A stretch of DNA of 64,000 nt, taken from contig JBKBRF010000002.1 in assembly GCA_046292385.1 (NCBI GenBank), forward strand, positions 96,001 through 160,000. The letters are read 5' to 3'. The DNA is from Armatimonadota bacterium. GTDB taxonomy: Bacteria; Armatimonadota; SYMT01. Of this stretch, positions 21,966 through 30,848 are shown one piece after another. The translations under genes and the position numbers were made by a program. The first letter of the stretch is position 1. Every line of letters starts with the position of its first letter. The notes below the pieces were generated by a model. It was not told where the DNA came from, made no database searches, and saw nothing but the letters and a program-made list of their open reading frames with translations.

Positions 21966-22112
21966 CCGCGCGCCCACGCGCCGACAATCTCAGCGGAGAC
22001 CCGCGGGCGGAGCGGCCCGGAACCTCCTTGACCCGATAGCGTGTCAATGATACTGTTCGCTCCCCCGGTCGAGCCGCCGGGGAGCTTGCGCCCGGTCAGA
22101 GTGGGAAGAAGT

Positions 22113-22985
22113 ATGTCCACCTCCGAAGAATTCAGACCGCAGGGCGGACGGAACGCCGTCGAAGGCGAAGAGCCGCCGAGCGCGGCAGGCTTCCGGGCGA
22201 TGGGAGACGACCTCGCCGCGGAAGGCCGGCTGCAGGAGGCGATCGAGCAGTACAAGCGGGCCGTCCGCGCGGAAGGGGACAACCCGGACCACCACGCGCG
22301 GCTGGGCGATGCCTACGTCTTCGCGGAGAACAGCGGCCAGGCGCTGGCGCACTACCGCCGCGCGCTGCAGTGCAATCCGAACCACGCCGACACCCACTTC
22401 TCCCTGGCAGAGGTCTACCGGCGCTTCGGCAAGATCAAGGGCGCGATCACCCTCTACCGCAAGGCGATCGACCTCGCGCCCCGCAACCCCTACTACCGCT
22501 ACCGCCTCGCCACCGCCTTCAGCCAGCAGGGGAAGGTCGACTCCGCCATCCACGAGCTCCAGGAAGCGATCCGCCTGGCCCCGGAGGACGGCTTCTATCA
22601 TTTCTGGCTCGGCGACCTCTACCTCGACCTCGACCGCACCGCGGAAGGAGTCCGCGAGCTGGAGCAGGCGGTGAGCCACTGCCCGTTCGACGACTACTAC
22701 TGCGTCCGCCTCGGGATGGCGTACGGCATGGTGAACCGCAACGACGACGCGGTGCCGCTCTTCCAGCGCGCCATCCGTCTCCGCCCGAACAACGCGTCGT
22801 ACCACTACCTGCTAGCGGATGCCTTCGCGCGCATGGGCTACGCGCTGCGGGCGGCGATGCACTACGAGATCGCCGGCGACCTCGATCCGTACGACCGCCA
22901 GTACGTCACCCGCATGCGAGAGGGCTTCCTGAAAGGAAGCCGCCCCAGCCGGGAAGACTTCGGCCTCTCGCCGCTGGAAGACTGA
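22113..22985 (+). CDS. Tetratricopeptide-repeat protein
   Basis: Several 34-aa TPR units (AI..Y..A....P.N pattern); start may be further upstream (22041). Confidence 0.85.
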   Translation: MSTSEEFRPQGGRNAVEGEEPPSAAGFRAMGDDLAAEGRLQEAIEQYKRAVRAEGDNPDHHARLGDAYVFAENSGQALAHYRRALQCNPNHADTHFSLAEVYRRFGKIKGAITLYRKAIDLAPRNPYYRYRLATAFSQQGKVDSAIHELQEAIRLAPEDGFYHFWLGDLYLDLDRTAEGVRELEQAVSHCPFDDYYCVRLGMAYGMVNRNDDAVPLFQRAIRLRPNNASYHYLLADAFARMGYALRAAMHYEIAGDLDPYDRQYVTRMREGFLKGSRPSREDFGLSPLED

Positions 22986-23000
22986 CCCCACTCTTCCGAG

Positions 23001-23051
23001 AAAAGACCGCCGGGGAGGAGCTGATCTCTCGCTCCTCCCCGGCGGTCTTTT
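23001..23051. terminator. Bidirectional intrinsic terminator
   Basis: aaaagaccgccggggaggagc / gctcctccccggcggtctttt perfect 21-bp stem between convergent genes. Confidence 0.85.
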
Positions 23052-23067
23052 GCTTCCGGCCCGGCGC

Positions 23068-24057
23068 CTACTTCGGTGCGGGCTCCGCGCCTCGCTCCGG
23101 TCTGCGCTCCGGCAGCTTGTAGTCCGGCGGCCGCTGGTCCGGTGGCAGCCAGCGCTGCGGGTTGTAGTCGAGCCCGTAGGCGTCCGCCATCCGATTGTAG
23201 AAGGCGAAGAGCGCGGTGATGAAGCTCGCCTCGAAGATCTGCTCGTCGTTCCAGCCGGACTTCCGCAGCCGCTCTACGTGCGCGTCGGTCACCTTCGCGG
23301 GCTCCAGGGTGAGCACCTTCACGTAATCGAGCAGCGCCCGCTCGCGCTCGGTGAGGTTCGCCGCCTCGGCGTCGCCCTGGCCGATCTTGTCTACGTCTTG
23401 TTGGTCTTGTCCCTGCAACTGCAGGTTATACGCGTGCGCGCCCACTCAAAACTTGCACCGGTTGAGCGCGGAGACGTAGGTCGCGATCATCTCCTTCGTG
23501 CGGCGGTCGAGCGCGGTATCGGGCCGGTGCGCCTTGCCGTGCAGCGTCTGGATCAGCCGCAGCCACTCCGGCCGCAGGCTGAAGGTGTGCATGATCCCGT
23601 TCTTCGGCTGCCGTCCCAGGATCTGCTCCACTTCGTCGTAGCGGGGATCGCCCGGCTCGGCCCAGTCGATCCGCATCACGCCCGCGGCTTGGCGGACCAT
23701 GCCGGTGATGGCGGCCGCGGAGGAGGACCGGCCGACGAAGCGGCCGCGGCGGTCGTAGACCAGCGCCGTCGGCGTCTCCACGATGCCGTACTGCTTCGCC
23801 AGCGGCTCCGTACCGGACTTGAGGGGGATCTCCCGGAAGCCGACTTTCGCCCCCGCCTGCTGCCGGAGCTCCTGGAGGAATCCCCGCTCCAGCGTGCTGG
23901 AGGGCTTCAGGAAGACGAAGACGGTCGGCCGCTCCGCCGCCAGGTGGCGGGTCAGCGGCGCCTCGCGCGCGGCGGAGAGCGGCGCAGCCGGCGAAGGCGG
24001 GCTTCCGCCCGGCGCGGCGAGCAGCGCCGCCAGCGGTAACGCGTGGAAGGGTGACAT
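23068..24057 (-). CDS. Probable selenoprotein: signal peptide + thioredoxin-like domain + AhpD/CMD peroxidase-like domain (Sec at TGA 23446-23448)
   Basis: ORFs 23446..24057 and 23068..23445 are in frame and joined by one TGA, giving EMIATYVSALNRCKF-U-VGAH, which matches the AhpD-family VSxxNxCxxCxxxH motif; 329 aa with readthrough. Confidence 0.85.
23412..23425 (-). promoter_or_regulatory. Candidate bacterial SECIS stem-loop
   Basis: mRNA reads UGA + 20 nt + CCUGC-AGUU-GCAGG hairpin with GU in the apical loop. Confidence 0.55.
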
Positions 24058-24061
24058 CTCC

Positions 24062-24907
24062 TCAGTTCTCCTTGAACCAGGCCCGCGCCGCGGGGGCGAG
24101 GGTGCGCGACCATGCCACGCCGCTGGTGCTGCGGGTGCGCCAGGAGCTGCCGGGGCCCTTGAACCACTTCACGTGCCCGTCCGCCAGCAGGTAATTGGCC
24201 CCGCCGCTGTGGCGGTAGCGGGCGCCGCAGTAGTTCGCCGCCTGCCCGTTCGTCGGACCGGTAATCGGCGGGTAGCCGCTCTCCAGGCGGCTGCAGTCGG
24301 TGGTCCAGTCATCCCCGCCGGTGACATTGATCCAGCCCATGCCCTCTGCCGCCAGCACCACCTCCGCCGGGGCGTTGATGGTCGCCAGGCTGCTCGGCTT
24401 GCCGGGGAAATGGCCGAAGCTGGCGAAGCCGCGGTGCCACATCGGGATCAGGTTGCCGTTCGCCATGTAGCTCATCGCCGGGGAGAAGTTCTGCGCCGGG
24501 AACGGTCCGGGCGCCGGCTCGCCGGGGAGCAGCGGGACCGACCGGTTCTCCACGCTGGGACAGATCCAGAACGGAGCGTTGGCGCGCTGCGCGTTGACGC
24601 CGTTCTGGATCACGGCGCGGGCCCCGGCCCGGGCGTACGGCTCCACCAGGTCGTACCACATCTGGACCGGCTGCCCCGGCGGGTTGTAGGCGCCGAGCGG
24701 CAGCATCTCGTCGGCATCCTGCGCGTACATGATCACCGCCATGCCGATCTGCTTCATGTTGCTGGTGCAGCTCGCCTGGCGCGCTTTCTCCCGGGCCTGC
24801 GCGAAGACCGGGAAGAGAATGGCCGCCAGGATAGCGATGATGGCGATCACTACGAGCAGCTCGATCAGGGTGAAGCCGCGGCGATAGGTGGGGAATGATT
24901 GAGACAT
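24062..24907 (-). CDS. Prepilin-type N-terminal cleavage/methylation protein with H-X9-DG C-terminal motif (DUF1559-like)
   Basis: [51 protein letters not shown]. Confidence 0.92.
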
Positions 24908-25128
24908 AGTGCTCCCTACGAAACCTCTGCACGCTCCTCATCTGCGTGCCGCGGGCGGCAGCCTGGGGGCGAAAGGCTCCTTGCTGATCTAGCATGGAAC
25001 GGTAGGACACACCGTTAGAAAGGACTAAGCCGCCGCGCCCCGCGCCGAACACACGGGGCAGGAGCGAGACGCTTCGGGACAGAAGCCTTCGTAGTCACGT
25101 CTGCGCCAGACCCTCCCTTCCTGCACTG

Positions 25129-25386
25129 ATGCCACCTTCCAAGCCGGCCGACGATCCGGCCAACGCCCGTCCCGCCCCCGGAGAGATCGTGCTCCACGAG
25201 GGGCTCACCCTGCTCGAGACCGACGACCCGGTGCTCCTGGTGGAGCTGCAGTCCGACAGCCGGGTCGCCGCCTCGATCGTTGCGCTGCTCTCGCCCTGCG
25301 CCGCGGTGGTGAAAGCCGGAGACGCCCCGGCCCTCGCCGAGCGCCTGCTCAAGACCGGGCACCTGCCGAAAGTGAGCGAGCTGTGA
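25129..25386 (+). CDS. Small protein resembling the alpha/beta module that follows XPB helicase-associated domains
   Basis: LLETDDPVLLVEL...LSPCAAVV...ALAERLLKTGHLP parallels the C-terminus of the downstream protein; GTGA overlap. Confidence 0.6.
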   Translation: MPPSKPADDPANARPAPGEIVLHEGLTLLETDDPVLLVELQSDSRVAASIVALLSPCAAVVKAGDAPALAERLLKTGHLPKVSEL

Positions 25387-27716
25387 GACTCGGCTCCCTG
25401 AGCGGCGAGATCTATCCGGGCGAGCCGATGCGCTTCGACGAATTCCTCTCGCAGTTTTCCTCCGAAGAGCTCAAGCGGCTGGCGAAGCCTTTCGTCGGAA
25501 CGGAAGCGTACCGGCTCAAAAAGGACGCAGCCCTGCGGGCGATCCTCACCGCGCTGCAGAGCCCGGACGTCCTCCGCCGGCGGGCGGCGTCCCTTTCGGA
25601 GGGCGAGCGGTTCGCGCTCACCCTGGTGCGCCGGCGCGGCGGGAGCCTGCCGGCGGCGGAGCTGGCCGGCGCGATCTGCGGCTCCGGGCACACGGTGGAA
25701 GGCTCGCAGTATGACCGCGACTCCTGGACCTCTGCCCTGAACGGGTTGACCGACCGGCTGCTGTTGATGAACGTGGGGCCCTACACAGGCGGGTACGGCT
25801 ATTCGAGCTACTCGCTGGACGGAGGCCTCGGCGGGGTGGTCTCGTTCTCGGACGAGCGTCTGCTCCCCCTGGTGGAGCACACGCCCCCGAAGACGCTGGC
25901 GATCGAGCCGGCGCCGCAGCCGGAGGTGCGGGCGAGTCGCCGCCCGGCGGAAGTACTGCTGCTGATGACCGCCGTCATGGAGGCGATCGGGCGGATGGGG
26001 GGGCTCCCGCTCACCAAGAACGGCAAGCTCAGCCGTCCGGGCCTGCACCGCCTCACCAAGGCCCTGAAGGGGCGCGAGGAGTCGCCGCACCCGCTCGCGG
26101 TATCGCTCTCCTTTGACGAATTCCTCGCTTCGGAGTTCCTGACGGAGCTACTCGGCTCGTCCGCGCTGCTGAGCTGCGACGTCGAGGCGATGCGGGTGCT
26201 GCCCGGTCCTGGAGCCTGGGAGTGGCTGGAGGCGCCGTTCGAGATGCAGGCGCTCCAGTGGGCGATGGGGTACCAGGTCCTCACCGGCTGGGCGGAGTTC
26301 CTGCCCAGGCACTACTATGACCGCCGCGAGCTGGATGTCTCCGGCAAGGTCAACGCGCTCCGAGCCGCCCTGCTGACGGGCCTCGCGGCGCTGCCGGACC
26401 CCGCCCGCTGGTACCGCTTCTCCGAGCTCGCCGCCGCGCTGGAAGGAAGGCTCAAGGGAAAGCTGTCGCTCATGGTGATTCCTTCGACCTACTTCTACGG
26501 GAGAACGGAAGCGGAGCGGCAGGCGTTCGAGACGAAGCGCCAGGAAGAGCTGCGGAAGAACTGGGTGCAGTCGGAGCAGGTCTGGCTGGAGCGGGCGCTC
26601 CGCGGACCGCTGTTCCACCTGGGGCTGGTCGAGCTCGGCGCTGCCGCGGAGAGTCCCGACGACCTCCTGTTCCGGCTCACCGATCCCGCCGCGTCCGGGC
26701 TGCGCTTCTTCTTCCACAACGTCCAGATCCAGGTCGCACCGCCGCCGTCCGGTGGCTGCTGGGTGGTGCAGCCGAACCTCGACGTCGTCGTCTACATGGA
26801 CCGCGTCACGCCGGCGCGGCTGGCGTTCCTGGGACAGGTGGCGAAGACGGAGTCGGTCCAGCCGAATGCCGCCACCTACCGGCTCACCCGCGATTCGGTC
26901 TACTACGCGCTCGAGAGCGGCTTTTCCGCGGAGCAGCTGCTGGAGGGCCTGCGGGAGGGCTCCCAGGGACCGCTCTCCCCGGTGGTGGAGCGCACGCTGC
27001 GGGACTGGTCCGCCAAACGGGAGCGGATCCGGCTGCACACTTCCGCCCGCCTGCTCGAGTTCCCGGACACCGCGGCCCGGGACGCCGCGGCGGAGCGGCT
27101 GGGAAAGGCGGGCGCTCCGGTGGGAGAGCGCTTCCTCCGCCTGGAGGCGGAGACGCTGCCGAGGGAGCTGGCAGCGCGCGTGACGCAGCGGATCGACTAC
27201 CGGCTGCCGCCCCCCACCTGCCTGGAAGTGGCGGAAGACGGCACCGTCACCGCGCGCGGGTCGCTCGACCTCCCGGCGCGATCGCTGCTCCTGCGCTGGA
27301 TGGAGCCGCTCCCGGACCGGGCCAACGCCTGGAGGCTGACCGAGGCGAGCGTCCGCGGCGCGGCGGCGGCAGGACTAAGCCCGGCCTCGCTCGAGACGGT
27401 GCTGACGGAGCGGACCGCCTCCGGCGAGATCCCGGGGATCCTCCGTGTCGCGGTGCGGGCGTGGGCCTCCGGGCGCCCGCTCGAGAAAGCGACTCTCGGG
27501 GAGGCGACGCTCTTCCTCATCCAGGAGAAGGCGCTGGCGGAGGCAGTGGAGGCGAGCGAGCGGCTGCGGGCCCTCCTCGGCGAGCAGCTCTCGCCTCGCG
27601 CGTACCTCGTCCCCGATGCCAACCTGGACGCCCTCCGCGCGCTGCTGGCGGAGCTCGGCATCCAACCGAAGGAGCCCGTTCCCAGGGCGCCGCGATCCCG
27701 AAAGAAGGGCGCGTAG
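25383..27716 (+). CDS. Helicase-associated (XPB/Ssl2 N-terminal-like) domain protein without ATPase motifs
   Basis: VVQPNLDVVV...YRLTRDSVYYALESG...LRDW and a second copy ...WRLTEASVRGAAAAG...VRAW; no Walker A or DExH motif seen. Confidence 0.75.
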   Translation: MRLGSLSGEIYPGEPMRFDEFLSQFSSEELKRLAKPFVGTEAYRLKKDAALRAILTALQSPDVLRRRAASLSEGERFALTLVRRRGGSLPAAELAGAICGSGHTVEGSQYDRDSWTSALNGLTDRLLLMNVGPYTGGYGYSSYSLDGGLGGVVSFSDERLLPLVEHTPPKTLAIEPAPQPEVRASRRPAEVLLLMTAVMEAIGRMGGLPLTKNGKLSRPGLHRLTKALKGREESPHPLAVSLSFDEFLASEFLTELLGSSALLSCDVEAMRVLPGPGAWEWLEAPFEMQALQWAMGYQVLTGWAEFLPRHYYDRRELDVSGKVNALRAALLTGLAALPDPARWYRFSELAAALEGRLKGKLSLMVIPSTYFYGRTEAERQAFETKRQEELRKNWVQSEQVWLERALRGPLFHLGLVELGAAAESPDDLLFRLTDPAASGLRFFFHNVQIQVAPPPSGGCWVVQPNLDVVVYMDRVTPARLAFLGQVAKTESVQPNAATYRLTRDSVYYALESGFSAEQLLEGLREGSQGPLSPVVERTLRDWSAKRERIRLHTSARLLEFPDTAARDAAAERLGKAGAPVGERFLRLEAETLPRELAARVTQRIDYRLPPPTCLEVAEDGTVTARGSLDLPARSLLLRWMEPLPDRANAWRLTEASVRGAAAAGLSPASLETVLTERTASGEIPGILRVAVRAWASGRPLEKATLGEATLFLIQEKALAEAVEASERLRALLGEQLSPRAYLVPDANLDALRALLAELGIQPKEPVPRAPRSRKKGA

Positions 27717-29537: not shown

Positions 29538-30848
29538 ATGGAGCCCACTACCGCCGGCCCCGAGCGCGAGACGTTCGACTACACCCCGGAAGAGCACGCC
29601 GCCGCCTCGACCGGGGACTACGTCTTTCACCAGCTCATCCCGTACATCGGGAACAAGCGGAAGCTGCTGGGCCTGATCGGCGAGGCGCTGGCGCGGACCG
29701 GGGGCACGCGGGAGGGCACTTTCCTCGACCTCTTTGCCGGCAGCGGGGTCGTCTCCCGCATGGCGAAGCGGCTGGGGTACCGCGTGCTGGCGAACGACTG
29801 GGAGCCGTACGCCCTGGAGCTCAACCGCTGCGCCGTGGAGTGCAGCACCCCGCCGCCGTTCACCGCCCTCGGCGGCTACCAGGCGGCGATCCAAACGCTC
29901 AACACCCTCCCGCCGGCGGAGGGGTGGGTCACGCGGCATCTCTGCCCCCGCGACGACCGCGCCTGCGACCCGCGCGTGGAGCGGATGTTCTACACCCGCG
30001 CCAACGGGATGCGCCTCGACGCCATGCGGGAGCAGGTGGCGCAGTGGGAGCGGGACGGCCTCCTGGATCCGGCCGAGCGGGCCTGCCTGCTGGCGCCGAT
30101 GCTCTACCAGGCGAGCTACACCAGCAACACCAGCGGCGTCTTCAAGGGCTTCCATCACGGCTGGGGCGGCCAGACCGGCACCGCGCTCTACCGCATCCTC
30201 TCCCGCCTCACACTGCGCCCCGCCCTCTTCCACGAGAACGGCCGGGAGAACCGGGTCTATCGGACGGATGCGACGGCGCTGGCGCGGAAGCTGCGGGAAG
30301 AGCGGGTGGAGGTTGACGTCGCCTACCTGGACCCGCCGTACAACCAGCACCCGTACGGCAGCAACTACCACGTGTTGAACACGGTGGCGCTCTGGGATCA
30401 CCCGTCCCTCTCGGAGCGGATCGAGGGTCGGAACAAGGCCGGCATCCGGCTCGACTGGCGCACCGAGCGGCGCAGCGCCTACAACCACCGCGGCGACGCG
30501 GAGCGGGCCTACCGGGAGCTGCTGGGCGAGCTGGAGGCGCGCTGGATCCTGACCAGCTACAGCACCGACGGCATGATCCCGCTGCCGAAGCTGCTCGCCG
30601 CCTGCCTGGAGCGCGGGCGGACCGAGGTGGTGCTGCGCCGCTACAAGCGCTACCGGGTCAGCACCCAGCGCTACTCCCGCAAGCCGCTCAACATCGAGCT
30701 GGTGGCCGTCATCGACACCCGCCGCCCCCACCGCGGCCCCTCCGCGGAAGAGCTTTGCACCCAGATCCGCCGCGAAGAGGCCGCGGCCTTGAGCGAGCAC
30801 GCGGGGAGTCCGAACGTGGAAGAATCCGAACGTGTAAAAAGGGGATAG
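29538..30848 (+). CDS. N6-adenine DNA methyltransferase (D12 class), apparently orphan
   Basis: YIGNKRKL, FLDLFAGSG, AYLDPPYN. Confidence 0.88.
   Translation: MEPTTAGPERETFDYTPEEHAAASTGDYVFHQLIPYIGNKRKLLGLIGEALARTGGTREGTFLDLFAGSGVVSRMAKRLGYRVLANDWEPYALELNRCAVECSTPPPFTALGGYQAAIQTLNTLPPAEGWVTRHLCPRDDRACDPRVERMFYTRANGMRLDAMREQVAQWERDGLLDPAERACLLAPMLYQASYTSNTSGVFKGFHHGWGGQTGTALYRILSRLTLRPALFHENGRENRVYRTDATALARKLREERVEVDVAYLDPPYNQHPYGSNYHVLNTVALWDHPSLSERIEGRNKAGIRLDWRTERRSAYNHRGDAERAYRELLGELEARWILTSYSTDGMIPLPKLLAACLERGRTEVVLRRYKRYRVSTQRYSRKPLNIELVAVIDTRRPHRGPSAEELCTQIRREEAAALSEHAGSPNVEESERVKRG

Follow-up and report, generated by a model that had tools for sequence, protein, structure and literature searches.

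The 64,000-nucleotide stretch of Armatimonadota DNA analysed here (the window) contains two minus-strand open reading frames, 24057–23446 (203 aa, ending ..NRCKF) and 23445–23068 (125 aa, starting with GTG), that abut in frame with a lone TGA (23446–23448) between them. Is this TGA a stop, or does it encode selenocysteine (Sec) within a single gene, and what protein would the joined frames make? Read through the TGA, the gene (23068–24057, minus strand, stop codon TAG at 23070–23068) yields a product of 329 residues with Sec at residue 204, in the sequence VSALNRC-K-F-U-VGAH. A preliminary description drawn from the DNA letters had pointed, without giving a strand, to two frames split only by the TGA and to a 329-aa read-through product with a CxxU motif. 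Both points are borne out, the frames lying on the minus strand and the joined translation placing the motif at C201-K-F-U204. The plus-strand reading of 23068–24057 was rejected because the plus frame is a shadow frame.

The in-frame TGA and its hairpin

Third-position GC content is 0.93 before the TGA and 0.90 after it. A contig of sequencing run X1 shows 0 differences from 22900–24881 at a depth of 54.5, X1 being a possible source of the window sequence and hence not independent of it. The window genome (7.04 Mb, 69% GC, 98% complete) contains selA (578 bits), selB (368 bits), selD (362 bits) and tRNA-Sec (selC, 66.6 bits), all scoring over their cut-offs. The selA, selD and tRNA-Sec genes lie together on contig C11 and selB lies on C16; selD has an in-frame TGA of its own. 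The preliminary description held that UGA is decoded as Sec and named the absence of selA, selB and selC from the genome as an objection; with all four genes present, that objection fails. A second TCA 'tRNA-SeC' called by ARAGORN (G000:C77:16947–17029, G000 being the window genome) was rejected because it is absent from the Rfam tRNA-Sec matches and reads like coding sequence.

A bSECIS-type hairpin, CCUGC-AGUU-GCAGG (23412–23425, minus strand), starts 20 nt after the UGA. The consensus bSECIS, as given in PMC13188914, has a loop of 3–9 nt, a stem of 4–16 bp, a G in the first two loop positions, a spacing of 16–37 nt and an MFE of −7.5 or lower. The hairpin here lies within all of these ranges, with a 4-nt loop, a stem of 5 bp, G at loop position 2, the loop 25 nt after the UGA and an energy of −8.4 kcal/mol. 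An equally stable structure arose in 4 of 200 shuffles, and the hairpin's energy is unexceptional against shuffles of the 60–100 nt context (z −0.3 to +1.4). An Rfam scan returned no family above its gathering score. Among the 1377 coding-like frames of the window genome that end in TGA, at least 100 further coding-like codons follow in 41, such a hairpin follows in 50, and both follow in 3.

Copies of the gene in relatives (see below) retain the hairpin to different degrees along the stem. All 159 TGA copies have a G at loop position 1 or 2, and the paired fraction was reached by 0 of 500 shuffles. Among 87 TGA copies, the outer pair is kept in all, and the second pair, the sole pair with double changes, shows three compensatory CG→UA changes. 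Covariation alone is weak, because 24 of the 87 copies do not form the innermost pair and slid controls match its score (0.048 and 0.047 vs 0.034 for the hairpin). Synonymous lock-in is a stronger hairpin signal than covariation: in 135 distinct stretches, Phe+7 is TTC in 121 of 121, Leu+10 is TTG in 55 of 55, Leu+8 is never CTC and Gln+11 is CAG in 128 of 132, while flanking codons are free to vary. TTG accounts for 2.4% of Leu codons in the window genome and occurs once in the gene. The hairpin is lost or degraded in the Cys copies examined.

The codon in relatives

We aligned 163 copies from 160 loci in genome and metagenome collections (the best 80 of 388 and the best 80 of at least 524), some loci occurring in both collections and one ending before the Sec column. 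At that column 159 of the 163 copies have TGA and 4 have TGC. Within a set of 61 genomes, 19 match the gene, and the 30 distinct copies examined comprise 26 with TGA and 4 with Cys; the 17 genomes that carry a TGA copy all have selA, and the 21 genomes lacking a selA match give no match to the gene either. Across 301 genomes of the phylum, the fused form described below occurs in 19, as 22 copies (19 TGA, 3 Cys), and selA occurs in 157 of the 301 genomes and in 18 of the 19 fusion-bearing ones. The exception, G228, has TGC and no hairpin and is only 84% complete. G300 has TGC despite the presence of selA, and G031 carries a tandem of TGA and TGT copies. Because kin are not independent, these counts of codons and selA are to be read as patterns, not statistics. 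The preliminary description had allowed that its reading would fall if close orthologues all carried TGC or TGT. The alignment of homologues gives TGA, not TGY, in close orthologues, which together with the four Sec genes supports decoding of this UGA as Sec. Decoding of TGA as Trp or Gly was rejected because TGA is the commonest stop of the genome and homologues have Cys at the column.

Among the 120 database homologues listed, 117 end exactly at N-x-C-x-x (104 found by regular expression, 13 by eye) and the remaining 3 are full CxxC proteins; named relatives are mostly Armatimonadota or Abditibacteriota records. Standard annotation thus splits the gene, as had been predicted, and the Sec reading repairs this error across nearly the whole clade.

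Two paralogues occur in the window genome, on C66 (full-length, 61%) and on C5 (short and AhpD-only, 44%), and each has TGA. The locus C66:23789–25635 is a second copy of the whole two-gene cassette (the selenoprotein gene with its DUF1559 neighbour, see below), with the same hairpin, whereas C5:193779–194333 encodes a short leaderless AhpD selenoprotein and has the loop GGUC. At L026/L041 (in G031) and at L164, TGA and Cys paralogues adjoin, the Cys copy being without the hairpin. These natural Sec/Cys pairs and the near-invariant 14-nt hairpin provide a clean set of sequences on which to test SelB recognition across Armatimonadota, Planctomycetota and Acidobacteriota. A short AhpD clade that is more distant (L030–L036, L046 and L047; several families of the phylum) has CFY-TGA-(T/V/I)ESH, followed by a hairpin of another kind.

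A quick, midpoint-rooted tree was built from the AhpD domain with 85 rows, omitting those with fewer than 150 aa in that region. All 39 rows with the fusion cluster together in it (SH-aLRT 91), separately from the short forms found in Planctomycetota and Acidobacteriota. The six fused Cys copies sit in different places of this tree, on long branches, and a topology holding them together was rejected (p-AU 0.010, the group having been named after the tree was seen). The scatter and the rejected monophyly in these sequences suggest that Sec changed to Cys repeatedly within the fused clade.

The alternative for the codon itself is that the TGA is a real stop, left by a nonsense mutation or a sequencing error or dividing a split gene that re-initiates at the next codon. 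The GTG directly after the TGA in the window would suit re-initiation, but only 25 of 159 copies have GTG or ATG as the +1 codon and a split would sever the CxxC. TGA is indeed the genome's commonest stop (1377 of 3296), yet it is kept at this one column across several phyla, the frame behind it is open for at least 87 aa in 158 of 159 copies, and the Cys copies are scattered in a tree that rejects the grouping of the six fused ones. We consider a real stop barely credible. The apparent stop codon almost certainly codes for selenocysteine, and the sequence data leave us close to certain that, in a single gene, UGA204 would be read as selenocysteine through a SelB-bound hairpin 20 nt downstream.

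Architecture of the encoded protein

An AhpD-like domain (TIGR01926 / PF02627) occupies residues ~128–300 (23158–23676, minus strand). The joined protein matches PF02627 with an E-value of 5e-16 and scores 95.9 bits against TIGR01926 (cut-off 81.8 bits; relatives 84–98), whereas the C-terminal half alone reaches 61.6 bits and the N-terminal half gives no match at E ≤ 1e-8; neither half passes by itself. In an alignment with the solved AhpD-like proteins 6k40 and 3c1l, U204 falls on the second Cys of their CxxC. The predicted structure of the whole protein has two domains (pLDDT 93.5, pTM 0.87), of which residues ~128–300 match DR1765 (6k40) with a Foldseek E-value of 1.8e-10. The family matches, the alignment to solved proteins and the structure match all uphold the AhpD assignment of the preliminary description, which had rightly pictured an AhpD selenoprotein and overlooked its unusual part, the N-terminal 125 residues.

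Cys133 is the nucleophile of Mycobacterium tuberculosis AhpD. The relay of that enzyme, Glu118/Cys130/His132/Cys133/His137 (PMC3141380), maps by position onto E189/C201/F203/U204/H208, with Glu at −12 and His at +4 in a helical hairpin. All 71 rows agree at E189, C201, column 204 and H208, and position 203, at the place of His132, is Phe, Tyr or another residue (Phe here); the same source describes PA0269 as a weak peroxidase with Tyr at the His132 position. Since E189, C201, U204 and H208 are proton-relay and redox residues by position, the Sec204 selenolate of this AhpD-type oxidoreductase would attack a hydroperoxide or disulfide, and C201 would resolve Sec204 as a selenenylsulfide. Identity as a gamma-carboxymuconolactone decarboxylase was rejected: PF02627 matches, but that enzyme is without CxxC and relay residues (PMC3141380), and both CxxU and relay are present here.

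By every feature tested in the sequence, the protein is a TIGR01926 AhpD-like selenoprotein. With the known AhpD-like selenoprotein (TIGR01926 / COG2128) it shares the CxxU, a score above the cut-off, Sec/Cys pairs and an in-ORF bSECIS; the extra 125 N-terminal residues and the DUF1559 linkage set the window gene apart. DR1765 (6k40), M. loti Mlr4105 (3c1l), PA0269 (2o4d) and M. tuberculosis AhpD have the all-helical AhpD fold and the Glu/CxxC/His relay spacing of the window protein but are Cys enzymes of 145–197 aa without a thioredoxin domain, whereas in the window protein Sec replaces the second Cys and Phe stands in the place of His132. NF041238 (AhpD_rel_CFYUT) and NF041537 (arsenite methyltransferase/AhpD selenoprotein) are, like the window protein, CxxU proteins larger than one domain. 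Their partner domains differ from those of the window protein, which scores 55.7 against the NF041238 cut-off of 175 and gives no match to NF041537 at E ≤ 1.

Residues 1–125 are a signal-like leader and a thioredoxin fold whose CxxC has turned into SxxE. The leader (residues ~1–25; 23983–24057, minus strand) is signal-peptide-like and then Pro/Ala-rich, and would direct export. The thioredoxin-fold domain (residues ~26–125; 23683–23982, minus strand), folded alone, superimposes on thioredoxin 3zzx over 99 aligned residues (Z 12.1, rmsd 2.8). The WCGPC of thioredoxin aligns to S-S-T-L-E, leaving S54-T-L-E57 at the CxxC position; T95-P96 is kept, and residues 1–200 contain no Cys. Over 121 rows, S54 is conserved in 98%, E57 in 99% and T95-P96 in 100%. 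Pfam Thioredoxin_2 matches weakly, below its cut-off, in 25 of 70. The nearest outside relatives of the domain include the leader-bearing CxxC thioredoxins P0240, P0244 and P0226. These exported thioredoxins (PF00085) have the leader, the N-terminal SxGxxV-L extension, the thioredoxin fold and the xP motif in common with the window protein, which differs in its S-x-x-E in place of CxxC and in its fusion to AhpD. In this clade an AhpD enzyme was probably fused to an exported thioredoxin, gaining the signal-like leader, with the thioredoxin CxxC lost afterwards; the cysteine-less domain would now probably act in stabilisation or docking.

The Sargasso Sea selenoproteome of 2005 already included 27 AhpD-like CxxU sequences (PMC1088965), 299 of the type 'AhpD-like 1' were counted in the GOS data (PMC2398784), and the AhpD-like selenoprotein was tabled under TIGR01926 in 2026 (PMC13188914). 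The available parts of these three papers make no mention of the leader and thioredoxin fusion or of the DUF1559 linkage. BSepDB covers Armatimonadota genomes, with at least 104 occurrences in its supplement (PMC13326102), so the genes may already sit there, unremarked, as 'AhpD-like'. In the literature searched, we found no description of an AhpD selenoprotein with a leader and a cysteine-less thioredoxin domain, and no DUF1559-prepilin/AhpD cassette. The enzyme type is known; the export-like leader and cysteine-less thioredoxin domain are undescribed in the literature found. The Sec codon alone does no more than enlarge a family known since 2005, and the architecture is the more important part: the fusion would show an enzyme relocated by joining an exported thioredoxin that then loses catalysis.

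The DUF1559 neighbour and the probable function

Upstream of the selenoprotein gene lies a gene for a 281-aa protein with DUF1559, prepilin-type N-terminal and H-X9-DG features (24062–24907, minus strand), whose stop is 4 nt before the selenoprotein ATG. On the other side, between the selenoprotein gene and a convergent TPR gene (22041–22985, plus strand), is a perfect 21-bp inverted repeat with T tracts on both strands (23001–23051; z about −7.5, 0 of 200 shuffles on each strand), which from its sequence is a probable bidirectional terminator. No sigma-70-like promoter was found in 22900–25200. RNA run X9, from a relative ~95% alike, covers 23048–24897 and not the flanks, and one contig spans both genes, a weak hint that the DUF1559 and selenoprotein genes form one transcript; X9 contigs over the TGA were not counted as bridging because they have fewer than 31 bases on one side.

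The function we favour, and think probable, is that of a Sec-containing peroxide or disulfide reductase of the envelope, acting outside the cytoplasm. The protein, presumably exported and co-transcribed here with the DUF1559 prepilin-like gene, could receive electrons from a DsbD/CcdA-type membrane protein; a DsbD_TM gene is present in the genome (93 bits). According to PMC8945050, AhpD proteins are peroxidases or reductants of AhpC recycled by lipoamide systems, and loss of DR1765 causes H2O2 sensitivity. An exported, selenium-using AhpD, if true, needs a reductant and a substrate other than in this lipoamide-recycled antioxidant case.

A cytoplasmic selenoprotein, its leader an Ala/Pro-rich extension or a membrane tether, would instead be an ordinary AhpD-like peroxidase recycled by lipoamide or thioredoxin. 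The reduction of characterised AhpD proteins by lipoamide systems (PMC8945050) agrees with this, as do the weak leader of the window copy (best 10-mer KD 2.26, no Lys/Arg n-region) and the fused copies of family f13 in G018, G031, G192 and G233, which have no hydrophobic leader from the first Met. Residues 1–20 of the model have low pLDDT. Judged by hydropathy only, 113 of 119 fused homologues nevertheless have a hydrophobic stretch, against 0 of 39 short forms, an AxA-like site follows it in 102 by a heuristic search, and each of three checked genomes (G000, G001 and G006) keeps a separate short leaderless TGA copy, making a cytoplasmic location improbable. A lipobox was seen in 0 of 119 fused homologues and RRxF in 1 of 119. 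Non-antioxidant chemistry on the AhpD fold, such as reductive dehalogenation as in Bmp8, is highly unlikely: the Bmp8 debrominase structures 6ohi and 6ohj are Foldseek matches (E 6e-6 and 2.5e-6), and in G003 a DUF1559 gene of the same subfamily as the neighbour here precedes an ORF with a motif we take to be deiodinase-like, but the peroxidase-related structures are far better matches (E 2e-10; 27% vs 20% identity) and there are no conserved biosynthetic or catabolic neighbours.

The selenoprotein might also be dedicated to the co-encoded DUF1559 protein, as its thiol-disulfide catalyst or redox partner, with the thioredoxin domain as docking site. Of 32 fused loci, 6 of which had less than 1 kb of upstream DNA, 14 have a DUF1559 gene immediately upstream, and for all 14 neighbours the best match among 44 prepilin-motif ORFs is one of the genome's two cassette copies (44–83% identity, vs at most 33% to the other prepilin-motif ORFs). 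Four Cys are invariant in this DUF1559 subfamily (14 of 14 rows), G000 and G005 each have the whole cassette in duplicate, and the two genes are 4 nt apart. Against such a partnership, the neighbour was present in 8 and missing in 12 of the 20 fused copies tested in the phylum sample, the subfamily occurs in 22 of 301 genomes with the fusion in only 11 of these, and a sister clade precedes presumably glycosyltransferase-like or other genes; we regard a dedicated partnership as unlikely. The idea of a selenium-dedicated DUF1559 subfamily, prompted by the copy in G040 that diverges from selA-selD, was weakened, since 4 of the 22 carrier genomes have no selA match and the sister clade has other neighbours. 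A complex prediction for a natural Cys-form fusion and its DUF1559 neighbour gave a score of 0.00 and a mark of 0.32, was run without controls and was used neither for nor against.

The envelope reductase we favour can be extended, tentatively, to a hitherto undescribed clade of exported AhpD selenoenzymes that took over an exported thioredoxin, silenced its CxxC and now use it for docking, and that form two-gene envelope redox units with a specific DUF1559 protein. The DUF1559 linkage is a testable lead, and such a redox unit, if true, would give a first functional handle on the large DUF1559 family.

Members of the DUF1559 subfamily and their sister clade occur in other settings. At L222:6582–10444 (G040) a subfamily member is divergent from selA and a selD-like gene, and G040 has no fused AhpD match. 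At L225:5012–7473 (G003) a subfamily gene immediately precedes a frame of ~530 codons that contains small repeated domains and, at its C-terminus, a presumably deiodinase-like motif; this frame has an in-frame TGA 16 codons after SCTC, which could be a nonsense mutation, an error or an unusual Sec site. The sister clade (L228–L233, L235, L241 and L215) precedes a conserved ~425-aa gene starting ..GSFYCGxCMRDN, which we take to be glycosyltransferase-like. The database protein P0090 has the DUF1559 gene and the N-terminal half of the selenoprotein in one 479-aa frame, either a real fusion or a frameshift error. Elsewhere in the window, a 436-aa ORF with a DPPY motif (29538–30848, plus strand) is presumably DNA-methyltransferase-like, with no obvious nuclease partner noted, and at 25129–27716 (plus strand) an 85-aa ORF overlaps a 777-aa ORF with a weak XPB-helicase-associated match (E 1.6e-6), diverging from the cassette.
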